Counted from the stretch's first letter, positions 1 through 19,234 are shown. The stretch: DNA of 19,234 bases from a virus (IMGVR_UViG_2563366844_000003); one strand, 5' to 3'. Program-made: numbers and translations. Notes: generated from the letters alone by a model not told the origin.

Positions 1-1260
1 ATGCCAAAACTCACAGATATGCAGATCCGCGCATGGATAAAGGCGGGAGACAGATTTGATGGCAAGGCAGACGGCAACGGCCTTTATATTTGCTACCCCA
101 AAAACTACACAGTCCCGTTCTGGCGATTCCGCTATAAGCTCGCAGGAAAGCAGCGGGCTATGGTTATAGGCTCTTACTCCGAACTGTCACTATCAAAAGC
201 CAGAGAAACAGCAAAAGAGCTGTCAGCCAGAGTTGCTCTTGGCTATGACGTAGCAGCAGAGAAACAGGTACGAAAAGCTGAAGCACTGGCAAAAATGGAG
301 GCTGAGAAAAACGCTATACGCGTTTCAGATCTGGCCGCCGAATACTTCGAGCGCCAGATACTTCCGAGATGGAAACATCCCGATATCCTTCGCCGGAGAA
401 TTGATAAGGATATTAACCCCTGCATTGGGCATATGAAGGTAGAGGACGTTAAGCCACGCCACATTGACGACATGTTGAAAGGTATCGTTGACCGAGGAGC
501 ACCAACGATAGCAACAGATGTATTACGCTGGACACGCCGTATCTTTGACTATGGAATAAAACGCCACGCTCTGGAGATAAACCCTTGTTCAGCGTTTGAA
601 GTATCTGATGCTGGTGGTAAAGAGGTTTCCCGCGACCGTTGGCTAACTCGCGATGAGCTTATCAGGCTATTCGAGGCTATGCGCACCGCAAAAGGATTCA
701 GCCGCCAGAACGAACTGACATTTAAGCTATTGCTGGCACTATGCGTTCGTAAGATGGAGTTATGTGCCGCACGATGGGAAGAGTTTGATTTAGATGGTGC
801 GGTATGGCATTTGCCGGAAGAACGCAGCAAAAACGGAGACCCTATTGATATACCTCTACCTTCCCCAGCCGTTGAATGGTTGAGAGAGCTACACACCTTT
901 TCATGTAATAGCGCATGGGTGCTTCCGGCCAGGAAGATGCAAAACAGAATGATCCCACATATTCAGGAAAGCACTTTACCCGTAGCACTGGCTAAGGTTC
1001 GCGCCGAAATGCCGGATGTGCCTAATTTCACGATTCACGACTTCCGACGCACCGCACGTACTCATTTAGCAGCGTTGGGTGTTGATCCTGTTGTGGCGGA
1101 ACGATGCCTCAATCATCGCATTAAGGGCGTAGAGGGGATTTATAACCGCCATCAGTATTTTGATGAGCGTAAAGCAGCACTGGCACAGTGGGCTGATCTG
1201 CTTGTGGCACTGGAAAGCGGAAAAGACTACAACGTAACGCCTCTCAGAAGGGCGAACTAA
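1..1260 (+). CDS. int: Tyrosine site-specific integrase, P4/CP4-57 type
   Basis: 419-aa ORF with a P4-type N-terminus (MPKLTD...IRAW.KAG). C-terminal catalytic region has HDFRRTARTHLAALG (H-x-x-R) and the terminal tyrosine in GIYNRHQY. Confidence 0.9.
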   Translation: MPKLTDMQIRAWIKAGDRFDGKADGNGLYICYPKNYTVPFWRFRYKLAGKQRAMVIGSYSELSLSKARETAKELSARVALGYDVAAEKQVRKAEALAKMEAEKNAIRVSDLAAEYFERQILPRWKHPDILRRRIDKDINPCIGHMKVEDVKPRHIDDMLKGIVDRGAPTIATDVLRWTRRIFDYGIKRHALEINPCSAFEVSDAGGKEVSRDRWLTRDELIRLFEAMRTAKGFSRQNELTFKLLLALCVRKMELCAARWEEFDLDGAVWHLPEERSKNGDPIDIPLPSPAVEWLRELHTFSCNSAWVLPARKMQNRMIPHIQESTLPVALAKVRAEMPDVPNFTIHDFRRTARTHLAALGVDPVVAERCLNHRIKGVEGIYNRHQYFDERKAALAQWADLLVALESGKDYNVTPLRRAN

Positions 1261-2313: not shown

Positions 2314-2517
2314 ATGAACACCGACACGATTCCTACAAAAGGCTATATCAGACGCTTTCGCCTGGCTGAATTGCTGGGCGTTAGTGTATCCACCATCGAC
2401 CGTAAAGTAAGAAACGGTTCACTACCACGTCCGGTAAAGCTGGGAGAAAAAATAACTGCGTTTGATGCGGTTGAGATTCACAACTGGCTGGCAGAACGCC
2501 GCGGGAAGGTGGCCTGA
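2314..2517 (+). CDS. alpA: AlpA-family (MerR-like excisionase-type) transcriptional regulator
   Basis: 67 aa. LAELLGVSVSTIDRKVRNGSLPRPVKLGEKITAFDAVEIHNWL matches the AlpA helix-turn-helix pattern. Stop overlaps the next start (ATGA). Confidence 0.85.
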   Translation: MNTDTIPTKGYIRRFRLAELLGVSVSTIDRKVRNGSLPRPVKLGEKITAFDAVEIHNWLAERRGKVA

Positions 2518-2948: not shown

Positions 2949-2960
2949 CGGAGACTGAAA

Positions 2961-5217: not shown

Positions 5218-5477
5218 ATATCAACTTAATTTATCGTCATCCGTGTGAGCTGGAAATTGAATCATTGCTGAGCCGTGAAGAGCCATATCCAGACACATTC
5301 ACTCTTGCAGATCGCACGACTGAACGGCTTACCAGAGCGCGCACAGGTCTGGTTCATGTGATGAATGAGATTCTTCCATCGGTGGGAGGGGAACAGGCGA
5401 CAGTAATCACTAGCTGGCTACAAAAAGTTACCTCTCTGATAGATATCAGTTTAATCGATGCGGAGAGTGCGAAATGA
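5214..5477 (+). CDS. Hypothetical small protein (87 aa)
   Basis: Start/stop overlaps with both neighbours (ATGA), consistent with translational coupling. Confidence 0.55.
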   Translation: MNINLIYRHPCELEIESLLSREEPYPDTFTLADRTTERLTRARTGLVHVMNEILPSVGGEQATVITSWLQKVTSLIDISLIDAESAK

Positions 5478-5695
5478 CTAACATCCAGCTCATTGAAGCG
5501 CAATGTCGCATCGAACAGGTTCAGACTGTTTTAGGGTTCTGGCTTGAAGGGGCCAGCCCCAGCAACAGAGACAAGTTAATGATTGGCGCGGTTATGTCAC
5601 TGCTCAATGGCGTACCAGAAGCTATTCAGGAAGCGGACGAATTGTTGGGCAAATATGAGTTACAGAATCATTCAGGCGAGGCGAAACATGAATAA
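5474..5695 (+). CDS. Hypothetical small protein (73 aa)
   Basis: Coupled to neighbours; stop overlaps the start of the next gene (ATGAATAA at 5688-5695). Confidence 0.55.
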   Translation: MTNIQLIEAQCRIEQVQTVLGFWLEGASPSNRDKLMIGAVMSLLNGVPEAIQEADELLGKYELQNHSGEAKHE

Positions 5696-6290
5696 TTTCT
5701 TAACGTTCCATGCAGAAGCAACGCCTGACGGCGTAAACATCATGTACCGCAGCAACGATGGCATGACAGAACGCGTTGAGGCCGTCTCATATATTGATGC
5801 CGTAAATCGTCTGGATGCCGGGGATTATGACGATAAACCAGATGAAGGTATGTCAATACATCTCGCTATTGCCGATGGCGGCAACCAGGGATATTTCGAT
5901 TACACATCACAGCATAACGTCATTATGTGGAGATGGCTGATCGCAACAGTATTCATGCTGGAAATGAGAGAGGAAAACGGCACTGTCAGCATCATTGATG
6001 ATACTGGCAATCCTTCCGAAGTGGCTGTTTATTCCAACGGCATCGTCGCCATGCCGCTGTATCCAGTAGCAGAGCGTCTCGCTATGGCAAACAACATTGA
6101 GGGCGCGATGATAGAACGTTTTGGCATCGAGTCTGGCACAGAACGCGCCATCATTTTCTACAGAGCCATGATGGATGTGGAACAAGGAGCACTGACTCCA
6201 TTTGGTCGTGAAACGCTTGCTGAACTTCACAACAGCTTTATAGCTGAACTGAATGAAAACGGCATGCCAGCGGAACCAGTGACGCACTGA
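5688..6290 (+). CDS. Hypothetical protein (200 aa)
   Basis: Most plausible start is ATG 5688, overlapping the upstream stop; the track's 5583 start lies inside the previous gene. Confidence 0.6.
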   Translation: MNNFLTFHAEATPDGVNIMYRSNDGMTERVEAVSYIDAVNRLDAGDYDDKPDEGMSIHLAIADGGNQGYFDYTSQHNVIMWRWLIATVFMLEMREENGTVSIIDDTGNPSEVAVYSNGIVAMPLYPVAERLAMANNIEGAMIERFGIESGTERAIIFYRAMMDVEQGALTPFGRETLAELHNSFIAELNENGMPAEPVTH

Positions 6291-6300
6291 GGATGGAGCC

Positions 6301-6642
6301 ATGATTACTAAAAATTTCCGACTGAATGCGCTGGCAAATAAGTATGCGTCGGCACTGTATAACCACATTACCTCCACCAGCGACGGGGACTATTTCATGG
6401 TTGATGCGGACGGCGAGGCCGTACGTGTGGAAATCGTCAATGGAGTAAAAGGCGTTCGCAGCCTGATCGATAGCTACACACTGGCAGCCATGAAAGTGTT
6501 CTACCCGCAGTGGGAAACCGTGGGGATCGAGCTTCTTGAGCGTTGCGTCAATAAGGACGGATTGACTGACGTCGGGCGTGAGATATGGCAAAGCATGGTT
6601 AATGACATGGGCGCAACTGTAGCGGGAGGTTCTCATGCGTGA
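6301..6642 (+). CDS. Hypothetical protein (113 aa)
   Basis: GAGG SD before ATG 6301; stop overlaps the next start. Confidence 0.6.
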   Translation: MITKNFRLNALANKYASALYNHITSTSDGDYFMVDADGEAVRVEIVNGVKGVRSLIDSYTLAAMKVFYPQWETVGIELLERCVNKDGLTDVGREIWQSMVNDMGATVAGGSHA

Positions 6643-7006
6643 AAATGCAGAAATGGCGCTTAGCTCCGCAATCGGAGAGCAGGTGGCAAAGATTGCTGGT
6701 GCTGTGTGGATTCATAACCTTCATTCTACTGGTGAAGAGAAAATGGCAATTCAGACGCCAGAGGGACGCACCATTACTACATCTCTGAAGCCGTCAGATG
6801 TTTGTGATCTGATTTGCGCATTCATGTACCCAGCAATGAGGACTGTCCACGGCGATCAGTGGAAACTTGCGACAACCGCTGAATTTGATATGTGGCTAAA
6901 CAATGATGGCATGCTGACTGATTACGGAATAACCAAGTGGCAGATGCTGGTTAGCCATATCGCAAACGCTATAGACCACGTGGGGTACGGTGATGCGAAA
7001 CATTGA
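6635..7006 (+). CDS. Hypothetical protein (123 aa)
   Basis: GGAGG SD before ATG 6635; 3' end overlaps the primase start. Confidence 0.6.
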   Translation: MRENAEMALSSAIGEQVAKIAGAVWIHNLHSTGEEKMAIQTPEGRTITTSLKPSDVCDLICAFMYPAMRTVHGDQWKLATTAEFDMWLNNDGMLTDYGITKWQMLVSHIANAIDHVGYGDAKH

Positions 7007-9749
7007 TCTTATCCGTCAGGTTATCAGTGCGTCTGAAAACAACTGGCCTCATGTGCTGGGCTGCCTGAACATAAATGTCCCTGACTCTCCGCGCCGTCAT
7101 GCTCCCTGCCCTGCATGTGGGGGCAAAGATCGATTCCGGTTCGATGACAACGGGCGCGGTAGCTTCATCTGTAATCAGTGCGGCGCTGGTGATGGGCTGG
7201 ATTTAATTAAACGCGTAAATAACTGCGACACAACAGAGGCGGCGCTTCTTGCCGCTGATGTTCTGGGTATTGATTACCGGACAACGGAAACACCAGAAGC
7301 CACCAGCCAGAAACGGGAACAACTGGAAACCAAGCGCCAGCGACGCGAACAGGAGCGCCTGAAAAGGGCAGAGAAGGACGAACAACAAAGACGGGATACG
7401 TTTTCCCGTCAGTTTGATGACATGCGCAGAAAGGCTGTAAACGGCAAATCTGATTATCTGGTTGCGAAAGGGGTAGGTGATTTTACATTCCCCGTGTTGC
7501 CCGATGGATCTCTGTTGCTGGCGCTGGTGGATAAATCCGGCGCAGTCACAGCAGCACAGACTATTACCTCACATGGTGAAAAAAGACTCCTGACAGGTTC
7601 AGCAAAGCGGGGGGCATATCACGCCATAAACGCACCAGAAACAACACAGAGCATCTTAATCGCAGAAGGGCTGGCAACGGCATTATCTGCCCATTTAATT
7701 CGCCCAGAGGCGCTTACAGTGGCGGCGATTGATGCCGGGAACCTGTTATATGTCGCCCAGGTACTGCGGGATAAATTTCCTTCAGCACAAATCATCATTG
7801 CTGCGGATAACGACCACAGCGAAGGAAGACAAAACACGGGGAGAAGAGCAGCAGAAAAAGCAGCTTTATCTGTTTCTGGATGGGTGGCATTACCCCCGAC
7901 AGATCACAAAGCAGACTGGAATGATTACCACCAAAAACACGGCATTAAATGCGCCACAGAAGCGTTCAATAAGTCAATGTACCAACCACAGGGTAATGGC
8001 GTGAAACAGGAGCCACAGACCATTGAGGGAAGCGATTTTAAGGTTATGGATACCGACCCACTGAAACCAAGAATAGAAAGCCGCGAGGATGGTATTTATT
8101 GGGTATCTCCGAGAGCTGACAGCCAGAGTGGAGAAATCATCAATAACGAAAGCTGGTTATGTTCTCCGTTAAGCGTTATCGGTACTGGCAGAGACGATAA
8201 AGACCAGTATCTCATTCTTCGCTGGCTGTCGTTTGGTTCTGAAACGCCGACAACCGCTGCCATTCCACTGGCTGATATTGGTGAACGTGAAGGATGGCGC
8301 ACACTTAAAGCTGGTGGGGTAACTGTCACGACCAAAAGCAGCCTCAGAGCAATACTGGCAGACTGGCTACAACGCAGTGGCTCTCGTGAATTGTGGCGTG
8401 TTGCTCATGCCACTGGCTGGCAATGCGGAGCGTACATCATGCCTGATGGGGAAATCATCGGAACACCTGAAAATCCTGTGCTGTTCAGCGGGAGAAGCTC
8501 AGCCGCAGCCGGATATACCGTCTCAGGGAGCGCGAAAAGCTGGCGTGATAACGTGGCGCGTCTGGCCTTTGGTAACTATTCAATGATGACCGGGATCGGC
8601 GCAGCACTGGCAGCGCCATTGATTGGGCTGGTGGGCGCTGACGGGTTCGGCATTCATTTCTATGAGCAGTCGAGCGCAGGTAAGACCACCACGGCAAACG
8701 TGGCGAGCAGCTTATACGGCAACCCTGATTTACTGCGGCTGACGTGGTACGGAACCGCGCTGGGGCTGGCAAATGAAGCTGCCGCCCACAATGACGGACT
8801 AATGCCGCTTGATGAAGTTGGTCAGGGCGCTGATCCTGTCAGTGTTTCACAGTCTGCCTATGCGTTATTTAACGGTGTAGGGAAACTGCAAGGCGCTAAA
8901 GATGGTGGAAACCGGGATCTAAAACGCTGGCGTACAGTGGCAATCAGCACCGGAGAAATGGATTTAGAAACATTTATCGCTACTTCCGGGCGAAAAACCA
9001 AAGCCGGGCAACTGGTGCGACTGCTGAATATTCCGTTGAGTAAAGCAGTACGCTTTCACGATTACCAGAACGGAAAACAGCACGCAGACGCACTGAAAGA
9101 CGCTTACCAGCATCACCACGGCGCAGCCGGGCGTGAGTGGATTAAATGGCTGGCAGACCACCAGCAACAGGCAATTAAAACTGTTCGTGACCGCGAAAGC
9201 AGATGGAGAAGTCTGATCCCATCCGATTATGGTGAGCAGGTTCACCGTGTAGCCGCGCGATTTGCCATTCTGGAGGCCGCATTGCTGTTAGGCGAGGTTG
9301 TAACAGGCTGGGATGCTCAGACATGCCGTGATGCGATACAGCACAGCTATAACGCATGGTTGCGCGAGTTCGGCACAGGTAACAAAGAACATCAGCAGAT
9401 TATTGAACAAACGGAGGCATTTCTTAATGCCTATGGGCTTAGCCGTTTTGCACCATTTCCATACAGCCCGGCAGATTTGCCCATCAAAGATTTAGCCGGA
9501 TACCGTCAGCGTGGAGAACATGACGAAAGCCCAATGATTTTCTACACATTCCCGGCCACATTTGAAAAGGAGATCGCATGTGGTTTCAACGCAAAACAGT
9601 TTGCTGAAGTGTTGAAAAAAGCCGGGATGCTAACCCCACCAAACAGCGGTCGTGGATACCAAAGAAAATCACCACGTATTCAGGGACGACAAATAAACGT
9701 TTATGTACTCAATTACCAGCCAGGAGATTACAACTCATCTGAAGAATGA
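6993..9749 (+). CDS. Replicative primase/helicase, P4-alpha-like (zinc-binding N-terminus, TOPRIM, P-loop NTPase)
   Basis: Zn-ribbon CPACGG...FICNQCG near the N-terminus. TOPRIM-like ILIAEGLATA and IIIAADNDHSEG (acidic E and DxD). P-loop-like SSAGKTTT. Start is probably ATG 6993; the track begins at the in-frame GTG 6990. Confidence 0.9.
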   Translation: MRNIDLIRQVISASENNWPHVLGCLNINVPDSPRRHAPCPACGGKDRFRFDDNGRGSFICNQCGAGDGLDLIKRVNNCDTTEAALLAADVLGIDYRTTETPEATSQKREQLETKRQRREQERLKRAEKDEQQRRDTFSRQFDDMRRKAVNGKSDYLVAKGVGDFTFPVLPDGSLLLALVDKSGAVTAAQTITSHGEKRLLTGSAKRGAYHAINAPETTQSILIAEGLATALSAHLIRPEALTVAAIDAGNLLYVAQVLRDKFPSAQIIIAADNDHSEGRQNTGRRAAEKAALSVSGWVALPPTDHKADWNDYHQKHGIKCATEAFNKSMYQPQGNGVKQEPQTIEGSDFKVMDTDPLKPRIESREDGIYWVSPRADSQSGEIINNESWLCSPLSVIGTGRDDKDQYLILRWLSFGSETPTTAAIPLADIGEREGWRTLKAGGVTVTTKSSLRAILADWLQRSGSRELWRVAHATGWQCGAYIMPDGEIIGTPENPVLFSGRSSAAAGYTVSGSAKSWRDNVARLAFGNYSMMTGIGAALAAPLIGLVGADGFGIHFYEQSSAGKTTTANVASSLYGNPDLLRLTWYGTALGLANEAAAHNDGLMPLDEVGQGADPVSVSQSAYALFNGVGKLQGAKDGGNRDLKRWRTVAISTGEMDLETFIATSGRKTKAGQLVRLLNIPLSKAVRFHDYQNGKQHADALKDAYQHHHGAAGREWIKWLADHQQQAIKTVRDRESRWRSLIPSDYGEQVHRVAARFAILEAALLLGEVVTGWDAQTCRDAIQHSYNAWLREFGTGNKEHQQIIEQTEAFLNAYGLSRFAPFPYSPADLPIKDLAGYRQRGEHDESPMIFYTFPATFEKEIACGFNAKQFAEVLKKAGMLTPPNSGRGYQRKSPRIQGRQINVYVLNYQPGDYNSSEE

Positions 9750-9772
9750 GCTTCTTCATGTGCGTAGAAAAG

Positions 9773-9887
9773 GTGTTGGTTCAGTTGGTTCAGTTGGTTC
9801 AATTTATAAATGGTATTGTTTTATAAGGATTTTATTCTTTTTATTGAACCAACACTGAACCAACAACACGGTATTTTGAACCAACAC
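9773..9887. repeat. Iteron block 1: three tandem GTTGGTTCA (9775-9801), an AT-rich spacer, then three inverted copies TGAACCAAC (9845-9853, 9856-9864, 9877-9885); putative replication origin
   Basis: Exact 9-mers counted directly. Classic iteron plus AT-rich architecture, 26 bp downstream of the primase stop. Confidence 0.7.
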
Positions 9888-9935
9888 AATGTGACTGAAT
9901 TGATGCGCACAACACCTGGCTGGCATCAGAGAGTG

Positions 9936-10011
9936 TTTTACGAGACTTTCGTAAAATCCTGTGTACAAGGGCGTGACGTTTTTGAAAGTGAGCACTACGA
10001 AATTTTCGTAG
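9936..10011. promoter_or_regulatory. Two related palindromes sharing a TACGA/TCGTA half-site: TTTTACGA-n5-TCGTAAAA (9936-9956) and CTACGAAA-n1-TTTCGTAG (9995-10011)
   Basis: Perfect 8-bp inverted arms in both. Located between the iterons and the terminator; candidate operator sites or RNA hairpins. Confidence 0.3.
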
Positions 10012-10205
10012 TTCAGAAAACAGCCCTTGAGAAGTTGTTATGCCTGTTCAGCAAACCATCCGCATAGCTGATCGCGAATCAAATTACCAATGGAGCCAGA
10101 AGCAAGGGCAGAACTGAAAAGCGCCTGCCGTGAAGAGTAATGCGACACCATAAATATAGTTTTTAGAGTCCATAAAAAACCTGTCAAAACCTGACACACA
10201 GAACG

Positions 10206-10239
10206 ATGCCACCAGCTACTGAGCGGTGGCATTTTTTTT
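10206..10239 (+). terminator. Rho-independent terminator closing the primase/origin transcription unit
   Basis: ATGCCACC...GGTGGCAT stem (8 bp, extendable with inner pairs) followed by eight consecutive T. Confidence 0.65.
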
Positions 10240-10249
10240 GTGCTATATG

Positions 10250-10320
10250 TTTCATATTTTGCAATTACGATGATGAATGTTGCGATTTGTGAAACTATAA
10301 TAACTGTTGTTTTATACAGT
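10250..10320 (+). promoter_or_regulatory. Putative promoter region for the cargo operon (TATAAT at 10296-10301)
   Basis: AT-rich tract with a consensus -10 hexamer and TTGCAA/TTGCGA -35-like elements at non-ideal spacing, between the terminator and the SD of the small ORF. Confidence 0.3.
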
Positions 10321-10334
10321 TCTAAGGGGGCGTT

Positions 10335-10496
10335 ATGGCTATTTCAGTAAAGCCGGTATTGATAAGTGAGAAGCAAATGGAAGCGATAAAGAAAATTCAG
10401 GAAGAGCAGCGTAAAAAATCAGGAATTGGAGTAGCGCCAACTCTGCATGAAATTGCACGAGGGTTAATAGATAAGGCGCTGGCAGGCTGTATGTGA
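10335..10496 (+). CDS. Small ORF (53 aa) absent from the ORF track; possible ribbon-helix-helix-like regulator
   Basis: Strong SD AAGGGGG 5-6 nt before ATG 10335. Translation MAISVKPVLISEKQMEAIKKIQEEQRKKSGIGVAPTLHEIARGLIDKALAGCM has a beta-strand then two-helix pattern compatible with an RHH fold (by eye only). Confidence 0.4.
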   Translation: MAISVKPVLISEKQMEAIKKIQEEQRKKSGIGVAPTLHEIARGLIDKALAGCM

Positions 10497-10512
10497 AAAT
10501 GGATGGCATCGC

Positions 10513-10974
10513 ATGGAACTAAAATTTATTGATAACCCTGTGCGATTACAGGCCTTTCTTAACGAGCCTGGCAATACCGAAAATATTGTTGAGCCGGGGC
10601 ACACGTACTACATCAAGCCTGATGCGGTATATCTCGGTATCTACGAAGGATTGGTGCTGGCTGGCGTTCATGAAGTGCGTAACTTCTGGCATAACATTGT
10701 TGAATGCCATGCGGTGTACGACCCCGGATTCCGTGGTGAATATGCACTGCAAGGGCATCGATTATTCTGCAAATGGCTTCTCAAAAACTCACCATTCCTT
10801 AACAGCATTACCATGGTTCCTGACACCACCAAATACGGACGGGCAATTATCCGTTTGCTTGGCGCTACCCGTGTTGGTCACCTTGATGATGCTTATATCA
10901 GATGTGGTAAACCCGTCGGCGTAACGCTTTATCAGTTAACTCGGCAACAATATAAGGAATTCAGCGAATGTTAA
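10513..10974 (+). CDS. Putative virion-associated protein, first gene of the ejection-protein-like operon (position analogous to P22 gp14)
   Basis: 153-aa intact ORF whose stop overlaps the next start. Assignment rests on operon position and size, not a recognised motif. Confidence 0.65.
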   Translation: MELKFIDNPVRLQAFLNEPGNTENIVEPGHTYYIKPDAVYLGIYEGLVLAGVHEVRNFWHNIVECHAVYDPGFRGEYALQGHRLFCKWLLKNSPFLNSITMVPDTTKYGRAIIRLLGATRVGHLDDAYIRCGKPVGVTLYQLTRQQYKEFSEC

Positions 10975-11645
10975 TTACCCATATAGCTCATAAATATCTC
11001 AATCGTGCCGTATACGAAAAAGGCGGTGATGGTGGTGCCTCTAAAGCTCAGGCGAAGGCCCAGCAGCAGGCAATTGATTTGCAGCGCGAGCAGTGGAATA
11101 CGGTGATGAATAATCTCAAGCCGTATGCAGAAGTCGGATTGCCTGCTTTACAACAACTACAAGGACTGATGACTCTGGAAGGGCAGAATAAAGCCGCGAA
11201 TGATTTCTTTGGTTCTGGTTTATATAAAACACAGGCAGATCAGGCCCGTTATCAGAACCTTGTCTCAGCAGAAGCTACCGGGGGGCTTGGCTCAACAGCT
11301 ACCAGTAACCAGTTATCTTCCATTGCGCCCATGCTTTATAACAATTGGCTCAGTGGGCAAATGCAAAATTATGGAAACCTGCTAAATGTCGGGATGAATG
11401 CGGCATCAGGGCAGGCAACAGCAGGGCAAAACTACGCCAATAATACCGGACAACTCTTGCAGGGGCTTGGCGCTATTCGTGCAGGTCAGGCGCAGCAGCC
11501 ATCCAGTCTTGCGCGTGGTATTGGTGGGGCGGCATCAGGCGCTTTAGCGGGTGCGCAACTTGGTTCCGTTGTTCCGGGTATAGGTAATGTCGCCGGGGCT
11601 ATTGGTGGTGGGCTTATTGGTCTTGTTGGGGGGCTTGGATTCTAA
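10968..11645 (+). CDS. Putative ejection/DNA-transfer protein (P22 gp7-like architecture; Gly-rich hydrophobic C-terminus)
   Basis: 225 aa. Gln/Ala-rich N-terminal half and a glycine-zipper-like tail GIGGAASGALAGAQLGSVVPGIGNVAGAIGGGLIGLVGGLGF. Stop overlaps the next start (TAATG). Confidence 0.7.
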   Translation: MLITHIAHKYLNRAVYEKGGDGGASKAQAKAQQQAIDLQREQWNTVMNNLKPYAEVGLPALQQLQGLMTLEGQNKAANDFFGSGLYKTQADQARYQNLVSAEATGGLGSTATSNQLSSIAPMLYNNWLSGQMQNYGNLLNVGMNAASGQATAGQNYANNTGQLLQGLGAIRAGQAQQPSSLARGIGGAASGALAGAQLGSVVPGIGNVAGAIGGGLIGLVGGLGF

Positions 11646-12964
11646 TGGCGACATGGCAACTTGGCGGGCTGCCTAGCATGGCACCGCAAAATGATAATGC
11701 TCCTCGTTCTTCCGTTCCTCAGCCTGTGCAGTATCAGCAGCAGCCAAACGTAGGTTTAATGGCGCTACAGGGGCTAAGAGGCGTTGCTGAGATTAATCAG
11801 CAGGCGCAAATTTCCCAGCAGCTAAAAGAATATCAGGCACGGTTGGGTAGTGCGGTAGCTAATAATGATCGTGTTGGAGTGCAGAAGTTAATGGCCCAGT
11901 ATCCCCAGTTTATGGCTGATTCTCAAAAACAGATGGGATTCATTGATGCTGAGCAAAATCGACAGACCGCTGACGCTGCCATGAATCTGCGTCTTGCGTC
12001 ACAAACTGGAGATCCACTGACCATGCAGAAGGCCATTCAGCAGGCAAATCCAGTATTACAGCGATTTGGTCTTCCTGCTGAAGAGGTTTATCAGTCTTGG
12101 CAGAATGACCCACAGGAATTCAACAGAATCACTGACCTCATCCACCTCCATGCTGATCCAAATAGTTACTTTAGTGTTCAAGAGAAGCAGCAAGGGCAGA
12201 GCATTGCACAGCAGAACGCAGATACATCTGCATATAATGCTCAGGTTAATGCGGAACAGGGTAATCGGCGTCTCGATATGGAGCAGTTCAAAGTCCTATC
12301 CGATAACCAACTACGCACGAGAGAAATGGTTCTGAAAGCACGACTTGGACGTGCTCAAAATGACATCGAGAGAGACAAGCTCAATGCTGAACTGAGCAAA
12401 GTACAGCAGGCGAAAGTGGAGAAGATGAACGATAAAATTAATACTGTTGCAGGTAACATCGACTCCTTGAACTCTGCGCTTGAAGTGGGTCATGAACTGG
12501 CGGGAATTGTAGGGAAACATCCTTCGGCCGTTACCCGCTCGCAGAACTATAACCCCCTGACGCTGGGGTTTGGATTCCTTCCTGATGTAGCAGAAGACAC
12601 ACGAAGCCTACGCGCCAAAGCTGATGAATACAACCTAAAGGTTATTCTGCCTAGCCTCAAAGGGACTTTTGGCTCTAACCCAACCGAAGGGGAAAGGGCT
12701 GCCCTTATGCAATCTCAAAATGGCATTAAGTCAGCAACCAGCAATGAGGCATTTTTGCGAGAGTTGAATAAAGCGCAGGACGTAATTATTCGAATGCAGA
12801 AACGACAGATTGCCGGGCTCGGTATTCCTGTAACCAAATCAAAGGACGAAGAAACTGATACCAAAATGCTGTTGCAGGATCCTTCACTGATTAAGGATTA
12901 TGTGACCGCACATGGCTATCTGCCGGAAAGTTACTATCAGGCAAAACTTAAGGGATGGCAATGA
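11645..12964 (+). CDS. Putative ejection protein (P22 gp20-like; Gln-rich coiled-coil)
   Basis: 439 aa, Gln-rich and predicted alpha-helical. Coupled start/stop with both neighbours. Confidence 0.7.
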   Translation: MATWQLGGLPSMAPQNDNAPRSSVPQPVQYQQQPNVGLMALQGLRGVAEINQQAQISQQLKEYQARLGSAVANNDRVGVQKLMAQYPQFMADSQKQMGFIDAEQNRQTADAAMNLRLASQTGDPLTMQKAIQQANPVLQRFGLPAEEVYQSWQNDPQEFNRITDLIHLHADPNSYFSVQEKQQGQSIAQQNADTSAYNAQVNAEQGNRRLDMEQFKVLSDNQLRTREMVLKARLGRAQNDIERDKLNAELSKVQQAKVEKMNDKINTVAGNIDSLNSALEVGHELAGIVGKHPSAVTRSQNYNPLTLGFGFLPDVAEDTRSLRAKADEYNLKVILPSLKGTFGSNPTEGERAALMQSQNGIKSATSNEAFLRELNKAQDVIIRMQKRQIAGLGIPVTKSKDEETDTKMLLQDPSLIKDYVTAHGYLPESYYQAKLKGWQ

Positions 12965-15681
12965 TGGCACAACTGACAGAAAAACAGAAAGCCTATTCCC
13001 GTCATCTCGATGAAAAATATGGTTTCCCATCAGGGACGATGGAAACATTAGTTGGCAATGAATCTAGTGGTAACGGAAGTGCCGAGTCACCGAAAGGAGC
13101 TAGAGGATTTGCTCAACTGATGCCCTCAGTAATGAGTGATGCTGGTTATCGTGGAACTGATCCGCGCTCACTGCCATTTGAAAAGCAAATGGATATCGCA
13201 GCAAACCATCTCAATAAAGGAATGAAGCGATTTGGTGATATTGGTATGGCATTGGCTGGGTATAATTCTGGCTATGCTCGTATTAATGCCGTCAGAAACG
13301 GTAAATCTACACTGCCAGATGAAACGGCTAATTACGTAAGTAAATTTGCAGATGCCGGAATAATCCCTGATGACAGTGAAATCTTGCAGTTTGCACAAAC
13401 CAGTCAACATCGCAATCTTCAGCAGCCTGACTACTCAGAGCTTGATAAAGAAATCTCTCAGGTGGGAGATATTTCTGCATGGGAAGCAAAACGTCAGCAA
13501 TTTAAGAACATAGAAGCAGGACTACCAACAGCCAGTTCATGGGAGCAGAAAAGAGCTCAGTTTCTCGCCGATGAAAATGCCGGGGAACCGCAGCAGCAAG
13601 TAGCCAAGTCTAACCTTAATCCTGAGATGGAATATCTTTCGCCAGGACTGAAAGCTGCGCCAGAGCAGATGGCCAGAGGGATTGCTAATATACCGTTTGA
13701 TGTAATGGACGCAGGCGTGGGGGTAGTCAATGCGGCGCAATCAGCCGGAGCATGGGCAGCTCAGAAGCTTGGTGTGGGTGATGGCACATACACGCCCATA
13801 TCACCTGTCTTTCGCCCAGTAGACCAACCTACAGATCCATACGCGCAGGCTGGTGAGCAGCTAGCACCTTACCTTATTACAGGATTAGGTGCAGGAAAGG
13901 CAGCTACCGCAGCTTCTTCCGTTGCCAACGCTCCACGTGCTGAACGTGCGGCCACAAAGGTGGCTAGTATGTTGGCAGAAAACCTGCCAGGTACATTGGT
14001 GAACGCCCAAAAGAACGGGCAGATCAGCCCAGAAGACCTAGCAAAAGAGACAGGTATTGGCCTAGCAGGATCGCTAGGAGCACGCGCTTTAATAAAGAGC
14101 GGACAGACAGCCAGTGACGTAATGCGAGATGTATTGCGGAGTAATACAAATCAATCAGGCCATGTGTTAGGGGCAGCAAATACTCTGGAAACCGCCAATG
14201 ATGTATCGAAAGCAGCGCGTTCTGCCGTAGGCCGAGAGCATATCGCATCGCAGGCATCAAACGTCAGAGATGATGTCGCTAAGGCGGCGAAAATCACTGG
14301 TATTAATATCAACACCCTGACGCCCGGAATGCGCTCAGGTAGTCGTGGAATTGCCCAAGCAGAAGGTGTTCTGGCATCAACTCCTGGGAATGTTCAGGAT
14401 GCTCACCTTACGGCCTTCAATGAAATATCCTCAAAGTTGAATAAGCAGTTGTCTGATTTCGGTGCTGAGTCTGGAAGCGCATCAGAAAAAAGCGCAGCAA
14501 TTAAAGAGCGCATCATCGCGAGCCTCAGTGATATGAAAACAGCAGAGAATATGGCATGGGCAGAACTGCGAAGCACGATGCCACGCGAAAGGATGAAAAT
14601 GAGTAATGGGATGGCTGTCGTCCAAGCAGAAAAAGCAGCCAATGTTCCACTCAGCCCGGAGATGAAACAGTTTCAGGCTGCCAACAACCAAGGTGGCGGC
14701 ATAACCTTCGACGGGATGAAGGCATGGCGTGCTAAGTTTGCTGATGCTGAACAAGCAAACACCCGGGCAGGTAAGGCCAATGCCGCCCGGATTGCCGGAG
14801 AAATGCGCAGAGCTATCACTGATGACATGCGCATCATGGCTGAAAAAGGAAACTTCCTCACAGAATGGCAGAAAGCTAACGATCTCTCTAAAAGTTACAT
14901 TATCGCCAAACAAAATGCCGAATCTGTTTTTGGTCGAGATCTCGCATCAGACGCTATGGTAAGAAAAGGTGCCGATACGCTTAAGGCATCCGCAAACACT
15001 GGAACGGGAGCTTTTCACCGCCTTATCTCCGCGCTGCCGGAAGCAGAACGCCAACCAGCAATAGCATCTATTCTTCAGCATGCTGTGGCGCAGGGAGAGA
15101 AGGGAGGAATCGGTGAAGAGTCTGGTATCCAGTATTTTGCCAAGCTCATGACCCAGCAGAATGTAAACGCCATCAGTCGTCATGCGCCAGATCTCGGTAG
15201 AATGATGAAAGAGTTCGGTGTACTCGCTAAAGCCAGCACCAGACCGCAGCGATACGTAGAGCGCACGGGAAGAACAACTGAGGCTCTCAAAACGCTCGAT
15301 TCAGGCCTTCCAAAGATCGTCGGTGTGATCATGAACGGAGTTCAACAGTCAGGTGCGATCGCTGGAGGCTTTGGCGGTGGTGTAATTGGTTCGATTAGTG
15401 GTTTGGTTGCTGGTGGCGCACTGAGAAATACTGTGGCTAAGATTGGGGCGACAAGAAGTGGTCGATATGCGATAGAGAAAGCCGTTCAGGAAGCTACAAA
15501 AGCAGTGCGCGCAGGGGCATCACCAGCAGCGATCGCCGCAGCAGAGAAACGATTTTCGACCAATAAAATTGCCATGAAAGCAATTCGTGATGCCGTTGGG
15601 GCTGAAGAATTCGTGAAACTGACAAGGGCCGGGATTGTAGCTACCCTCAGTGGCATGAAAGATGTTAGCGAATGGGAATAG
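12955..15681 (+). CDS. Large internal virion/ejection-type protein with N-terminal lytic transglycosylase (SLT) domain
   Basis: 908 aa. SLT motifs GNESSGNGSAESPKGARGFAQLMP (putative catalytic Glu at nt 13060-13062) and ALAGYNSGYARINAV. True start is probably ATG 12961 or 12964, which have better SD spacing from AAGGGA. Confidence 0.85.
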   Translation: MAMMAQLTEKQKAYSRHLDEKYGFPSGTMETLVGNESSGNGSAESPKGARGFAQLMPSVMSDAGYRGTDPRSLPFEKQMDIAANHLNKGMKRFGDIGMALAGYNSGYARINAVRNGKSTLPDETANYVSKFADAGIIPDDSEILQFAQTSQHRNLQQPDYSELDKEISQVGDISAWEAKRQQFKNIEAGLPTASSWEQKRAQFLADENAGEPQQQVAKSNLNPEMEYLSPGLKAAPEQMARGIANIPFDVMDAGVGVVNAAQSAGAWAAQKLGVGDGTYTPISPVFRPVDQPTDPYAQAGEQLAPYLITGLGAGKAATAASSVANAPRAERAATKVASMLAENLPGTLVNAQKNGQISPEDLAKETGIGLAGSLGARALIKSGQTASDVMRDVLRSNTNQSGHVLGAANTLETANDVSKAARSAVGREHIASQASNVRDDVAKAAKITGININTLTPGMRSGSRGIAQAEGVLASTPGNVQDAHLTAFNEISSKLNKQLSDFGAESGSASEKSAAIKERIIASLSDMKTAENMAWAELRSTMPRERMKMSNGMAVVQAEKAANVPLSPEMKQFQAANNQGGGITFDGMKAWRAKFADAEQANTRAGKANAARIAGEMRRAITDDMRIMAEKGNFLTEWQKANDLSKSYIIAKQNAESVFGRDLASDAMVRKGADTLKASANTGTGAFHRLISALPEAERQPAIASILQHAVAQGEKGGIGEESGIQYFAKLMTQQNVNAISRHAPDLGRMMKEFGVLAKASTRPQRYVERTGRTTEALKTLDSGLPKIVGVIMNGVQQSGAIAGGFGGGVIGSISGLVAGGALRNTVAKIGATRSGRYAIEKAVQEATKAVRAGASPAAIAAAEKRFSTNKIAMKAIRDAVGAEEFVKLTRAGIVATLSGMKDVSEWE

Positions 15682-15831
15682 ACGCTCTAACTAACAAAAC
15701 CATAATAGCCAAGGACGGCATACTGATATTGAGCCAACTATAAAAATTCCATATCACATTACGAGCCTGTGGCTTACATTCGCTTACAGTGATGATAATT
15801 TATAACCACGCAATTCTTAGGTGAGATTATC

Positions 15832-16530
15832 ATGATTAAAAATCTTCTTTTAATATTATCCCTGTCATTATTGGCTGGATGCGTACAAAAACCGTTAGTA
15901 ACGGTCAATGCTTTATCCTCCGGGCAATCTGTCGGTAAGAAGTTCTTGATCATCCCCGCAAGCCAAGAACTTTGGAACACCAAACAGATTGAATACACTC
16001 AAATAGCTACGGTAGTAGCCGCCAGTTTATCAAGCCAAGGATATACACAAGTTAAAGATGAAAAATTGGCTGACCAGGTAATTCTCTTGAACTTTTTGAG
16101 AAGCGGGGCCATTTCAAATACTCGTAATGTAACCATCCCAATATACGGGCAAACTGGTGTGAGCTCAGCAACAACGTACGGAAACTCGAACACCACGTTC
16201 AATAGTTATGGTGGTGGCTACGGTACGGCTAATACCACTGGAACGGCAACAACAGTTTATACGCCTACTTATGGAATTACTGGCGCGTATAACACAACTG
16301 TGACGGACACGTTCTACGGCGCAGGGGTGATACTCCAGTCGTTTGATGCCAAGGCTTATCTCAATAATAGGCAGATTAATATGTTATGGAAAGTTGGTAG
16401 CTCAGTCGTCTCGCAACAGTCTGATGGAATTGCTGATTACAAAGGGTTGGCGAGAATAGCCGCTAGCTATGCCGGGAAAAATACAGAAGGTGATATAACT
16501 TTTAATGTTGACCCTAAAGCACCAAATTAA
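15832..16530 (+). CDS. Lipoprotein with Thr/Gly/Tyr-rich low-complexity core
   Basis: Signal peptide plus lipobox LLAGC. Central T/G/Y/N-rich tract (about aa 110-160). AGGTGAG SD. AT-richer than the upstream operon. Confidence 0.8.
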   Translation: MIKNLLLILSLSLLAGCVQKPLVTVNALSSGQSVGKKFLIIPASQELWNTKQIEYTQIATVVAASLSSQGYTQVKDEKLADQVILLNFLRSGAISNTRNVTIPIYGQTGVSSATTYGNSNTTFNSYGGGYGTANTTGTATTVYTPTYGITGAYNTTVTDTFYGAGVILQSFDAKAYLNNRQINMLWKVGSSVVSQQSDGIADYKGLARIAASYAGKNTEGDITFNVDPKAPN

Positions 16531-16537
16531 CTAATAA

Positions 16538-16553
16538 GCCCGGTACGCCGGGC
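16538..16553 (+). terminator. GC-rich hairpin GCCCGG-tacg-CCGGGC after the lipoprotein gene (weak terminator candidate)
   Basis: 6-bp GC stem with a 4-nt loop, 8 bp after the stop, but a poor U-tract (ATTCAT). Confidence 0.3.
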
Positions 16554-16743
16554 ATTCATGCCCCTATTATTCATGAATCGCTTTTTCTGGAAGGTATGCG
16601 ACAAACGTTAAGTGACATTGCCTACACATTCGGGGCGGGATTTCAAATCCGCTCCCAGTTGATGGGGCCGTTACAGTACGCGCATATCCGCTTTATGTGA
16701 AACAGGAAGATTTTTCTGATATCACTGCCACAGCAAAACACCA

Positions 16744-16956
16744 ATGTCGAGACAAGTACGCGCGCGAGGGTTATCAGTTGCAAAAAGTTTTGCAACTGCG
16801 TCCGACCAGTACGCACACAATGGAGGGGAGTACCATAAAACTGTTCTCTACATAAGACAGAGTGATGGTGATGTGTTGATTATCGGCTTATATGCGCACA
16901 GGACGCGCTATGACGATGTTTTATGCGGGTACACCAATCACATATATCTGGTGTGA
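16744..16956 (+). pseudogene. Possible remnant of a RelE/ParE-superfamily toxin gene (C-terminal motif only)
   Basis: C-terminal HKTVLYIRQSDGDVLIIGLYAHRTRYDD loosely matches the RelE/ParE C-terminal pattern, but the N-terminal 35 aa are not toxin-like and overlap repeat sequence. Weak. Confidence 0.2.
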
Positions 16957-17055
16957 TAAATCGCGTTACATGACCTCTCATGTTGTGCTGGTGGTTATCA
17001 CGACGTTCTGAATCTGGCCTTTGCCTGGTATTTTGCGACAAGTACGCGCGCGTAG
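16752..17055. repeat. Direct repeats GACAAGTACGCGCGCG (16752-16767 and 17040-17055) flanking a 24-bp perfect palindrome CAGTTGCAAAA-AG-TTTTGCAACTG (16775-16798)
   Basis: Exact 16-mer occurs twice 288 bp apart. A third TACGCGCGCG occurs at 19012-19021. Confidence 0.6.
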
Positions 17056-17600
17056 CATCGAAATAATCGGATGGCGTATGCTGCTGGTAATATGAAGACC
17101 GATAGCATTAACCGAAAGGAGAAAGACTTCTCGATAACGGCAAGATCGCGGCAAGGGGGCTGAATTGCGAGGCGAGATTAAGCAACTGTCTTGAACGTAA
17201 AAATCATGGAGCAACATGATGGTACGATTCATTCCATTCTTCGTTCTTTCTGAGCATTGCGTTCAGGCTTAGTCAAAATTAGTGTTGCGAGCGGACCTAT
17301 TAGTAATTGTTAGTGCGATGCGCCTGTTATGGATTGTTATGGTTGTGGCAGGCCTGATTAATATCCAGTATGACCACCAGCTATGAGAAGCCACCTCAGT
17401 GGTTCGCAGTTGCAGGTTTGCACTCAGGTTCGCAGGGTTTTGGCTACTTTCACGTGCGAACCTGCAGAATTGCAAAGGACAACTAAGTCCTCTGGCCAAC
17501 TCCCGGTTTATGAGCGACACAGTCCGCCTGGCGCATCGTTTTCGTCGAGTGCGCCCATCAGCTTGTCCATGGACTATCCACCACTCGATATTAAAGCTAA

Positions 17601-17786
17601 TCATTGGTTGCCAGCCCGCGAATCAAGTTTATTCTGGATCCAAGCTTCAACCTCCTCAAGCGACCATCTAGCTGATCTACCAATTTTAACTGGCTGTGGA
17701 AACGTGCCCGTCTTAACCCATGAGTAGATTGCCGTTTTCTTGAAGCCCGTTCTGAGCATGACTTCGCTTAATTTGATAAGGCGCAT
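17601..17786 (-). CDS. alpA: Second AlpA-family transcriptional regulator, opposite strand
   Basis: 61 aa. MRLIKLSEVMLRTGFKKTAIYSWVKTGTFPQPVKIGRSARWSLEEVEAWI is a textbook AlpA sequence. GGAG SD on the minus strand upstream. Confidence 0.85.
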   Translation of the reverse strand: MRLIKLSEVMLRTGFKKTAIYSWVKTGTFPQPVKIGRSARWSLEEVEAWIQNKLDSRAGNQ

Positions 17787-17835
17787 AGAGGCTCCTCTGC
17801 TTTAGATTAAGCATAGTGACAATCTGGCTTTGGGC

Positions 17836-17870
17836 GGTATCCAAAAGCGAGGTATCCATGTTGGTATCCA
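17836..17870. repeat. Three direct GGTATCCA repeats (17836-17843, 17851-17858, 17863-17870) in the divergent region upstream of minus-strand alpA
   Basis: Exact 8-mers spaced 15 and 12 bp apart, start to start. Confidence 0.5.
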
Positions 17871-17984
17871 CCAAAACGCTGTTTACCAAAAAAGTTACCA
17901 CCGGAACAGGACATTTTGAGCTGTAACTTAACACATAGCATATGGAGTTCACGTATAGACTTCACGCACAACGGCTCCGGCCAG

Positions 17985-18013
17985 TGAAGAATCACCCTGG
18001 CTGGCAATATAAT
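17985..18013 (+). promoter_or_regulatory. Putative promoter (-10 TATAAT at 18008-18013) for the small + strand ORF
   Basis: Consensus -10 hexamer with a weak -35 (TGAAGA) at 17-bp spacing. Confidence 0.3.
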
Positions 18014-18038
18014 GCCGATCACCATCAGAGGGGAATCC

Positions 18039-18215
18039 ATGACACCACGAGAAATCGAGCTGCTGACCATTGCCAAGCTGGAGCATGACGGCCACCAGCT
18101 CAGCCCGGCAGAACTGCGGGAATTAAGGCGCCAGCTGGCAGAGGGCCCTGTAATAGCCAGGCGGTACCGCGAAATGATGACCAGCGCCGCTCCGTGCGCG
18201 GTGAGCAGCACCTAA
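18039..18215 (+). CDS. Small hypothetical protein (58 aa)
   Basis: GAGGGG SD 5 nt before ATG 18039. The track's start at 18012 overlaps the -10 box and lacks an SD. Confidence 0.45.
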   Translation: MTPREIELLTIAKLEHDGHQLSPAELRELRRQLAEGPVIARRYREMMTSAAPCAVSST

Positions 18216-18276
18216 CCAGCACTAGACAAGCCCTGTGCTGGTGGATGTCCCTCATAATTAGCGGTTTTTAAACGGC

Positions 18277-18401
18277 GTGTTGGTTCACGGCCTCTTTTTG
18301 TTGGTTCAAAAATGGGGGGTGTTGGTTCACTTTTTGCGAATAATCCTTTTAAAAACAATACTCTTTACAAATTGAACCAACTGAACCAACTGAACCAACA
18401 C
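18277..18401. repeat. Iteron block 2: three spaced GTTGGTTCA (18279-18287, 18300-18308, 18321-18329), an AT-rich spacer, then three tandem TGAACCAAC (18373-18399); inverted copy of block 1
   Basis: Same 9-mer as block 1, with the tandem and spaced arrays swapped. The reverse complement of the spacer aligns with the block-1 spacer (shared ATTTRTAAA...GTATTGTTTT...AGGATT...ATTC). Confidence 0.7.
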
Positions 18402-18435
18402 CTTTTTGCTTATCTATATAGTCTGAGAGGCAGAA

Positions 18436-18723
18436 ATGATGAGGGACAGGAAAGCTGAAGAGCTGGAGTCAAAAGGGCTATGCCGGAGAGCTGCCGCACG
18501 ATGGGCAGAAGTCATGACGCTGGCAGATGGCGATAAAGAACGTGAACATGCAGCAAACAGACGCTCTGAATGTATCCGTAGGGCGGCACGCCCACCAGCA
18601 ACTACAGACAGATTCGGAGATTTAAGACAGGCAGTTAAGCGAACTCATTCGGCTCTTGGTATGGATGAGGAAGCGAGAGGGTACTTCAGGCGTTATCGCG
18701 ATAAAGATTGCCAGAGACAGTAA
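18436..18723 (+). CDS. PerC-family transcriptional regulator (tentative)
   Basis: 95 aa. N-terminus KAEELESKGLCRRAAARWAEVM resembles the PerC motif (AEKLEAKGLWRRAA.RW.EV) as I recall it. GAGAGG SD. Confidence 0.6.
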   Translation: MMRDRKAEELESKGLCRRAAARWAEVMTLADGDKEREHAANRRSECIRRAARPPATTDRFGDLRQAVKRTHSALGMDEEARGYFRRYRDKDCQRQ

Positions 18724-19106
18724 TGCTCTCTCTGTTTTGGCAAATTACCCCTCACTTTGAAGGGATCGGAGCTATAAAAATGGTGTTATCCGGCTTCCTG
18801 CATTGCAGGTTTTCGAAAAAATCAATGGGTTAGGTCATCGTGCAAATTTGCACTCTGCCAGCCAACGCAATTTCTCGTTGGCGAAAATATCAGGTATTTA
18901 CTGAACGAACGGTCTACCAGTCTATTCAGTTACCAGTTGCACATGGCTGTTTCATGTGAGAACGGAGGTTTTTTCGGACATCACTATTGGGTACAGCAAT
19001 TTCACGAGCAATACGCGCGCGCAGGACAACAAGCCTGAACATGATTACACACCTCGATCGTGAGGGATGTAGACAATGGCTTCTGACCAAAGCACCCAAA
19101 AAAACC

Positions 19107-19128
19107 GTGTACATAAGGGTGTACATAA
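19107..19128. repeat. Direct repeat GTGTACATAA x2 (19107-19116, 19119-19128) with palindromic TGTACA cores
   Basis: Two exact 10-mers separated by GG. Candidate regulator binding site near the window end. Confidence 0.35.
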
Positions 19129-19234
19129 TCAAAAACCGCATTATAAAGAAACCAGCCACAATGAGGCATTAAAGCCAACACTCTACAAACAGATTCAATC
19201 GAGTAAGCGGCATCGCATTGTAGGCCATTGTTAA

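Follow-up and report, generated by a model that had tools for sequence, protein, structure and literature searches.

A lytic transglycosylase–gp16 fusion gene completes a P22-type ejection-protein operon in a capsid-less phage-inducible chromosomal island

The DNA analyzed here is a stretch of 19,234 nucleotides catalogued as viral (IMGVR_UViG_2563366844_000003), to which we refer as the window. The window corresponds to a discrete ~19.2-kb insertion between yicC and dinD in Escherichia coli and, by its gene content, is an EcCIMP1-type phage-inducible chromosomal island (PICI), not a phage. It carries four adjacent genes whose products are homologs of gp14, gp7, gp20, and gp16 of phage P22 (Table 1). 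The gp16-type gene, hereafter called the target, is the subject of this report: its product joins a lytic transglycosylase (SLT) domain to an ejection-protein body. The order gp14–gp7–gp20–gp16 is that found in P22 and in the P22-like phages Kapi1 and Dewey, stops and starts overlap along the cassette, and specifically, the gp20 stop overlaps the start of the target gene. In this arrangement, the four genes form a translationally coupled operon that ends with the target. A first-pass annotation of the same DNA had assumed a phage context for the gene; it resides instead in a capsid-less satellite, beside homologs of gp14, gp7, and gp20.

The target open reading frame (ORF) consists of 908 codons followed by a stop, as first annotated; RefSeq places the start two codons later, at 12961, which yields a protein of 906 aa. 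An E. coli protein of wide distribution (621 member sequences) matches it at 100% identity. Its N-terminus is hydrophilic and possesses neither a signal peptide nor a lipobox. The first-pass annotation had recognized a family-1 SLT signature in this region, and the domain search that it proposed bears the assignment out: Pfam SLT (PF01464) aligns with residues 17-119 at E = 1.1e-12, and its score of 48 bits lies above the cut-off (gathering score 21.3). The three signature elements, Glu-Ser, G-x-x-Q, and Y-N-x-G, are intact as E36-S37, G51-F-A-Q54, and G102-Y103-N104-S-G106. Of the two peptides that the annotation had quoted, GNESSGNGSAESPKGARGFAQLMP occupies exactly residues 34-57, whereas ALAGYNSGYARINAV, although present, spans residues 99-113 and not about 100-115. 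The Glu36 codon, GAA, lies where it had been placed. With such a Pfam score, chance is no credible source of the motif match. Across an alignment of 24 homologs reaching down to 48% identity, no substitution occurs at E36, S37, S38, G48, A49, G51, Q54, M56, P57, A99, L100, Y103, or G106, and conservation of N104 is 90% or higher.

Structural comparisons point the same way. A search of the PDB with the alignment profile returned Pseudomonas aeruginosa Slt (6e-12), E. coli Slt70 (1e-10), MltC, and MltE, along with gp16 of phage T7 (1.5e-8, query residues 11-135 against gp16 residues 15-149). A phmmer search of the PDB with the single target sequence gave no match, so the profile was required. 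When the two are compared with hhalign, target residues 21-133 pair with T7 gp16 residues 22-144, and E36 falls on E37, the residue named as catalytic in T7 gp16 (PMC8954989). The AlphaFold model of residues 1-160 (pLDDT 91.1, pTM 0.85) adopts the predicted goose-lysozyme-like, all-helical catalytic fold. Compared with the PDB by Foldseek, this model has lytic transglycosylases for all its top matches, each at probability 1.00 and with query-normalized TM-scores (TMq) of 0.5-0.68. The virion-core form of T7 gp16 (9jyy_I) ranks first (TMq 0.68, root-mean-square deviation 3.4 Å), with Slt at 0.59-0.67 and the ejectosome form of T7 gp16-N (7k5c_B) at 0.61. Sequence and model together assign the N-terminal domain to the family-1 (Slt70-type) lytic transglycosylases, and the domain is predicted to be muralytic.

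Beyond the SLT domain, sequence comparison identifies the target as a P22 gp16-family ejection (internal virion) protein, an architecture that the first-pass annotation had anticipated. The PHROG family phrog_770 (“DNA transfer protein”) covers residues 189-864 at E = 1.8e-120. In precomputed annotations, the database protein identical to the target, like its homologs, is assigned both PF26808 (Phage_P22_gp16) and PF01464; our Pfam scans did not return PF26808 for the target or for any other gp16 tested. By tblastn, the gene 16 products of CUS-3, HK620, epsilon34, SEN22, and Sodalis phage phiSG1 are 48-52% identical to the target over residues ~177-901, and the identities for Dewey, CUS-3, epsilon34, and HK620 fall between 46 and 52%. 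A protein-level search is needed to find these relatives: megablast of the target gene against phage genomes returned only a 50-bp match, to Salmonella phage SEN22. That match, at window 15457-15506, is 98% identical to SEN22 gene 16 in genes that are otherwise diverged; the stretch includes the codons for the invariant SGRYAIEKA motif close to the C-terminus and may, from its sequence, be a recombination joint.

The Ala/Gly/Gln-rich composition first noted for this part of the protein is evident: residues 237-908 contain 17% Ala and 10% Gly, and the linker (residues 136-236) contains 13% Gln. The full-length AlphaFold prediction is mostly helical, in agreement with the proposal of a largely helical remainder, but only the SLT domain is modeled confidently, with helices of moderate confidence at residues 520-760 and 830-900; residues 151-515 and 763-823 are modeled at low confidence. 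Within the linker, a short duplication (SAWEAKRQQF / SSWEQKRAQF) lies in residues 174-203 (window 13474-13563), and W196 is nearly invariant among homologs. The linker occupies a position corresponding to the gp15-binding “molecular tape” of T7 gp16, and no homology between the two was detected. In a separate comparison, the P22 gp16 residues G532 and P546, at which SieA escape occurs, mapped near target residues 793 and 804 in the Gly-rich segment. That alignment is weak, and we do not rely on it.

Table 1. Features of the island and of the target gene, in window coordinates
Feature	Position	Strand	Evidence
Tyrosine integrase, of another type than that of EcCIMP1	1..1260	+	phrog_1 E = 1e-63
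AlpA-family regulator downstream of int, same orientation	2314..2517	+	PF05930 E = 2.2e-8, above cut-off
Ant/Bro-N, DUF4222, and Ash regulators	between AlpA and primase		
TOPRIM/DUF927 primase-helicase (PICI replication module)	6990..9749	+	phrog_1139 E = 2e-177
gp14 homolog (DUF2824)	10513..10974	+	PF11039 E = 2.4e-61; phrog_651
gp7 homolog (P22_gp7 ejection protein)	10968..11645	+	phrog_598 E = 1.5e-69; 56% identity to P22 gp7
gp20 homolog (Inj_translocase, periplasmic-tube ejection protein)	11645..12964	+	PF16928 E = 3.7e-22; phrog_917/2534
Target: SLT-gp16 fusion gene, last of the ejection-protein operon	12955..15681	+	ORF call, Pfam, PHROG
Family-1 SLT domain, residues about 17-135	13003..13359	+	Pfam, PDB profile, AlphaFold, Foldseek
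Predicted catalytic Glu36 codon (GAA)	13060..13062	+	conservation; T7 gp16 E37 alignment
Gln/Glu-rich linker, residues 136-236	13360..13662	+	composition; AlphaFold low confidence, short helices
Conserved junction, residues 237-312 (NIPFD...PTDPYAQAGE)	13663..13890	+	common to P22 gp16 residues 73-137
gp16-type body (CUS-3/HK620/epsilon34/Dewey type), helical	13891..15678	+	phrog_770, tblastn, AlphaFold
Gly-rich hydrophobic segment, residues 788-825	15316-15429	+	hydropathy peak; invariant glycines
ORFs without assigned function, second AlpA/Xis-like gene (minus strand), PerC-family gene	after target		
Candidate attR core GTACATAAGGGTGTACATAAT	19109..19129	+	21-nt imperfect direct repeat

The genes surrounding the cassette have the layout of a PICI, with an integrase at one end, alpA just downstream, and a primase/replication module. 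PHROG and Pfam scans of essentially all window ORFs revealed no capsid, portal, scaffold, terminase, tail, or lysis gene, and the window ORF scans likewise revealed no TerS-, Rpp-, or scaffold-like gene and no small-capsid redirection gene. PICIs are also expected to possess no phage structural genes, but the gp7, gp20, and gp16 homologs of this island are virion (ejection) proteins, so that one class of structural genes is present, in contrast to the published account of EcCIMP1, in which none was identified (PMC11773190). A candidate att core, GTACATARRGGTGTACATAAT, is directly repeated, imperfectly and over 21 nt, at both island ends. Its left copy lies 58-80 bp upstream of the int start, just outside the window (CV839-06 locus 11920-11943).

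A concrete link between this island type and helper-dependent mobility is provided by EcCIMP1, a phage-inducible chromosomal island of E. coli MP1 whose helper is phage vB_EcoP_Kapi1 (Kapi1) (Pick, Stadel & Raivio, ISME J 2025, PMC11773190). Excision of EcCIMP1 requires the P22-like Kapi1, which also transduces the island (PMC11773190). Window positions 2507-18516 are 98.3% identical in DNA to EcCIMP1, and the target protein and its EcCIMP1 counterpart are 99.7% identical. The two islands have in common the cassette, alpA, Ant, the primase, alpA_1, and a perC-like gene. They differ at their ends. The integration module (window 1-2506) has been swapped relative to EcCIMP1, and the two integrases are only 28% identical; EcCIMP1 is inserted at tRNA-Thr between proA and yagU in MP1, whereas the window island occupies the yicC/dinD site; and the right ends diverge, with PerC homologs that are 52% identical. 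Helper-dependent mobility is established for EcCIMP1; for the window island, with its different integrase, it is putative. The EcCIMP1 authors identified no phage-like structural genes and regarded the cassette as candidate packaging genes, and the words ejection and transglycosylase are absent from their paper (PMC11773190).

Kapi1 possesses an ejection cassette of its own. Compared with it, the island gp14 is 83% identical, gp7 57%, gp20 26%, and gp16 24%, the last over the C-terminal part only, and Kapi1 gp16 has no SLT domain. At the DNA level, window positions 10513-11102, comprising gp14 and the 5' end of gp7, are 80.7% identical to Kapi1, and the only other Kapi1-similar DNA in the window is a 60-bp segment at 18775-18834. 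From this pattern, satellite and helper appear to have recombined where the cassette begins. We considered whether the gp14 type tracks the portal and coat type of the helper, and two prophages rule this out: a Serratia prophage combines a Kapi1-like portal and coat with a P22-like gp14, and another prophage combines a P22-like portal with an island-like gp14. The Kapi1 genome (39.4 kb) is about twice as long as the island (~19.2 kb). Thus, a P22-like capsid filled by headful packaging would have room for about two copies of the island.

The same island type, with the cassette, exists in Citrobacter, in Leclercia, and in one metagenomic contig at the yicG-ligB locus; a scan of genome contigs yielded only 4 loci, and these statements on island context derive from about a dozen inspected loci and do not constitute a census. 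All four cassette genes are intact in every island examined. Across the E. coli, Citrobacter, and Leclercia islands, each of the four genes has a ratio of nonsynonymous to synonymous divergence (dN/dS) within 0.04-0.10, with dS at about 0.4-2.6; the ratio for the SLT domain is about 0.05. Such ratios are those of a cassette under strong purifying selection in satellites. In E. coli, at least 80% of the target gene is covered in 72 of 5,426 complete genomes. The listed E. coli copies are all full-length, single-copy, and chromosomal, are 99.2-100% identical, and are annotated as normal coding sequences.

The SLT-gp16 fusion itself is recurrent and already annotated, and it is not new. The first-pass annotation was correct that P22 gp16 lacks such a fusion; its suggestion that the fusion might be distinct does not hold. 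Specifically, Dewey and Huey, which are P22-like phage isolates, have an SLT-gp16 of 875 aa (“DNA transfer protein”) in a complete 14-7-20-16 context, with the Dewey copy 46% identical to the target over its full length. Shigella phage Sf101 encodes a 911-aa “transglycosylase” (gp13) at the gene 16 position. Further fusions exist in Serratia and Tatumella prophages, one Serratia copy being 56% identical to the target over the full length, and in one additional phage contig. An exhaustive search with the body alone yielded only 75 cluster representatives. An N-terminal SLT domain is present in 8 of 10 long-class representatives and 0 of 10 short-class representatives; one further carrier brings the count to 9 of the 21 checked.

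Two SLT module types, about 35% identical to one another, are found among these proteins. Two Serratia prophages carry bodies that are 98% identical joined to different SLT modules, and in Sf101, the N-terminal 305 residues are common with Dewey while the body is unrelated. These combinations indicate that the SLT module has been shuffled at the conserved PTDPYAQAGE segment; by sequence, residues 237-312 are an apparent recombination joint at which the module is attached to different gp16 bodies. The island copies form a separate clade. They are 75-100% identical to one another and at most 75% (SLT) and 63% (body) identical to phage copies.

We propose that the target is a virion-borne, P22 gp16-type pilot protein equipped with an SLT module and that the satellite operon encodes a matched set that is probably loaded into helper virions for DNA delivery. 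On our analysis, the satellite is most likely putting its own DNA-delivery proteins into virions that the helper builds. The notion is that helper lytic growth would induce the satellite, whereupon the satellite would express its own matched ejection proteins, and that these would be loaded into helper-built procapsids. Upon infection of the next cell, the ejection proteins would exit via the tail, with gp7 and gp20 forming a trans-envelope tube. The SLT domain would cut a local gap in the peptidoglycan, with Glu36 acting as the acid catalyst, and the gp16 body would engage the inner membrane and pass the DNA. Because the target has no signal peptide, it would reach the periplasm only through the virion channel.

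Work on P22 makes such loading plausible. In P22, gp7, gp20, and gp16 leave the virion ahead of the DNA and form a trans-envelope conduit (PMC10883804; PMC8954989). Foreign ejection-protein cassettes in P22 hybrids assemble into P22 virions and function, provided that gp16 and gp20 match as a pair (PMC10883804). This pairing requirement fits a satellite that carries a complete set, and the hybrid results render it plausible that a matched satellite set could enter helper procapsids. The hybrids also show that the type of ejection protein, probably via gp16, alters sensitivity to exclusion by SieA (PMC10883804). A more specific version of our proposal is that a self-matched ejectosome re-equips hijacked virions, which could enable entry into cells that exclude the helper's ejection proteins, such as lysogens with SieA-like inner-membrane exclusion proteins, or through walls that a helper lacking SLT handles poorly. 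We regard this version as tentative, and rather less likely to be right than wrong. If correct, re-equipped virions would represent molecular piracy aimed at DNA entry and not at capsid size or packaging specificity.

Several observations weigh against satellite-supplied delivery. Transduction of EcCIMP1 by Kapi1 is very inefficient, and Kapi1 titers are unchanged by the island (PMC11773190), so a large effect on virions is not evident. Kapi1 has its own cassette. There is no obvious need for the satellite set, which could do harm and not good when mixed with helper gp16 and gp20 that are 24-26% identical. In T7, the gp16 transglycosylase is required for genome entry only when peptidoglycan is highly cross-linked (PMC8954989), and the target SLT domain may likewise be conditionally dispensable. 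With regard to the body, AlphaFold confidence is low across residues 151-515 and in the Gly-rich stretch 763-823, and PDB searches found no solved structure that matches it. Segment 788-825, likewise modeled with low confidence, has a Kyte-Doolittle maximum of 1.55, which is borderline for a transmembrane helix.

The divergence between island and helper proteins could also be read as hostile. Specifically, the cassette could be a weapon or a shield: mismatched gp16 and gp20 would poison helper virions, or the island's ejection proteins would interfere with incoming Kapi1 conduits and thereby account for what the island adds to superinfection immunity. Mismatched gp16/gp20 pairs do generate noninfectious P22 particles (PMC10883804), the island gp20 and gp16 are just 26% and 24% identical to those of Kapi1, and EcCIMP1, in which no known defense system was found, raises the superinfection immunity of Kapi1 lysogens (PMC11773190). 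Kapi1 titers after induction, however, are the same with EcCIMP1, which speaks against poisoning. A protein lacking a signal peptide would remain in the cytoplasm of the producing cell, away from incoming conduits and from peptidoglycan. Moreover, the immunity required the island and the prophage together, and its link to the cassette genes is conjectural. We consider this alternative unlikely.

The suggestion of the EcCIMP1 authors, made from gene position, is that the genes following the primase redirect DNA packaging or capsid assembly to the satellite (PMC11773190). Location after the primase does match the packaging modules of other Gram-negative PICIs. However, all four proteins are clear homologs of the P22 14/7/20/16 set, whose gp7, gp20, and gp16 members are established ejection proteins, leaving the virion to form the DNA conduit (PMC10883804); TerS-, Rpp-, and scaffold-like genes were not found in the window ORF scans; and a peptidoglycan-cutting domain has no role in packaging. 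A packaging function for the cassette is, in our estimation, improbable.

More improbable still is that the cassette is the inert remnant of a P22-like prophage that recombined into the island, leaving the SLT-gp16 functionless. The region had earlier been called a defective prophage, and the 81% DNA identity of 10513-11102 to Kapi1 does signify recombination with helper-type phages. Yet a functionless gene is not expected to show dN/dS of 0.04-0.10 at dS of about 1 across three genera, the four genes are intact wherever islands were examined, with the listed E. coli copies full-length normal coding sequences, and the element is, in its EcCIMP1 form, a functional, mobilizable PICI. Least probable of all is a cell-wall enzyme acting inside the producer, whether lytic (endolysin-like) or conjugative (VirB1-like), a reading prompted by the SLT domain and by PHROG match names that include “DNA transfer protein” and “endolysin” but opposed by the missing signal peptide and lipobox, by the lack of holin, spanin, and type IV secretion genes in the island, and by about 670 residues of gp16 ejection family in synteny with gp14, gp7, and gp20. 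Thus, selection, gene integrity, the missing export signal, and gp16 family membership with synteny led us to reject the degraded-prophage, lysis-enzyme, and conjugation readings.

Other features of the window and its relatives are recorded here. NCBIfam offers no specific model for any cassette protein, and a promoter/terminator scan around the cassette, with 6 promoter-like sites against 10.9 expected, was uninformative. Directly upstream of gp14 lies a 53-aa ORF (10335-10496), and a 53-aa gene occupies the equivalent position in EcCIMP1 and in the Citrobacter and metagenomic islands. Directly after the target comes a 232-aa ORF (15832-16530) for which searches of Pfam, PHROG, and NCBIfam gave no match. 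EcCIMP1 carries a 100% identical copy, a 232-aa gene exists at the equivalent place in the metagenomic island, and the ORF is absent from the Citrobacter islands examined. A 281-aa ORF at 1356-2201 also has no family match. The 9-mer GTTGGTTCA occurs in 12 exact copies in the window against 0.15 expected. The copies form two symmetric clusters, at 9775-9885 and 18279-18399, each with three forward and three reverse copies. The first immediately follows the primase stop codon, where a PICI origin is usually located; the second lies just upstream of perC, and together they bracket an 8.4-kb segment containing the ejection cassette. They could be origin iterons or operators.

The Citrobacter and metagenomic islands carry genes encoding SSB, a ProQ-like protein, and a 329-aa protein between primase and cassette, none of which is present in the E. 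coli islands; the Leclercia island has the same primase-to-cassette spacing as these islands. After the cassette, the Citrobacter and metagenomic islands carry a second integrase and Abi_2 or Schlafen-like genes, an arrangement that suggests tandem islands at a yicG-ligB hotspot. Finally, outside the window, the locus of strain CV839-06 encodes a reverse transcriptase family protein (8142-9101) between slmA and pyrE, ~3 kb upstream of the island. The gene is possibly a retron or another defense element and appears unrelated to the ejection cassette.

The target protein itself is an ordinary member of a recurrent architecture, and its satellite context is the more informative aspect. In the searchable literature, the satellites described act on capsid size, packaging, or tails, with no account of one that supplies a DNA-entry apparatus. 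Our literature searches found no paper describing satellite-encoded ejection proteins, although their coverage is incomplete and the result is absence of evidence only. In a validated satellite family, then, a full set of ejection genes unlike that of the helper went unrecognized in its own publication. If the set is indeed loaded into helper virions, the role of the “packaging module” in these type-C PICIs would be explained, the islands would constitute a natural experiment in ejection-protein compatibility, and satellites would be linked to superinfection exclusion, whose targets in P22 are gp16 and gp20. The existence of SLT-gp16 in P22-like phages also makes the published generalization that such phages lack a gp16 transglycosylase (PMC8954989) too broad.

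The closest known counterparts of the target are the SLT-bearing gene 16 products of P22-like phages and prophages (Sf101, Dewey, Huey, Serratia, and Tatumella). They possess the same succession of SLT domain, linker, PTDPYAQAGE segment, and gp16 body, and, like the target, they follow genes 14, 7, and 20. The Sf101 body, however, is unrelated to that of the target, and these copies belong to full genomes with portal, coat, tail, and lysis genes, whereas the target belongs to a capsid-less satellite. P22 gp16 (609 aa) and Kapi1 gp16 (722 aa) have the gene position and the presumed role of the target, but both lack SLT, and their bodies are of different mosaic types. Similarity of P22 gp16 to the target is confined to residues 73-137 (46% identity with target residues 237-312) and a C-terminal helix, a pattern that fits the known mosaicism of gene 16; Kapi1 gp16 is 24% identical to target residues 399-899.

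Bacterial family-1 enzymes (E. coli Slt70, MltC, and MltE; P. aeruginosa Slt and MltD) have the catalytic fold and signature motifs in common with the target. They are Sec-exported housekeeping enzymes with accessory domains of their own, whereas the target domain has no export signal and is joined to an ejection protein. T7 gp16 (internal virion protein D; PDB 7eyb, 9jyy, 7k5c) resembles the target in having an N-terminal family-1 transglycosylase with its catalytic Glu at the equivalent position, a large body after the SLT domain, no signal peptide, and a gene that is the last of its ejectosome operon, which in T7 encodes three proteins. The T7 body engages the inner membrane, and T7 gp16 is delivered via the virion channel, as we propose for the target. 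T7 gp16 differs in its length of 1318 aa and in forming part of an ordered core stack; homology to the target is detectable in the first ~135 residues only, and the P22-type body of the target belongs to another family (PF26808). By sequence, then, the target is an analog of T7 gp16 with a homologous N-terminal module, and not a member of its family.

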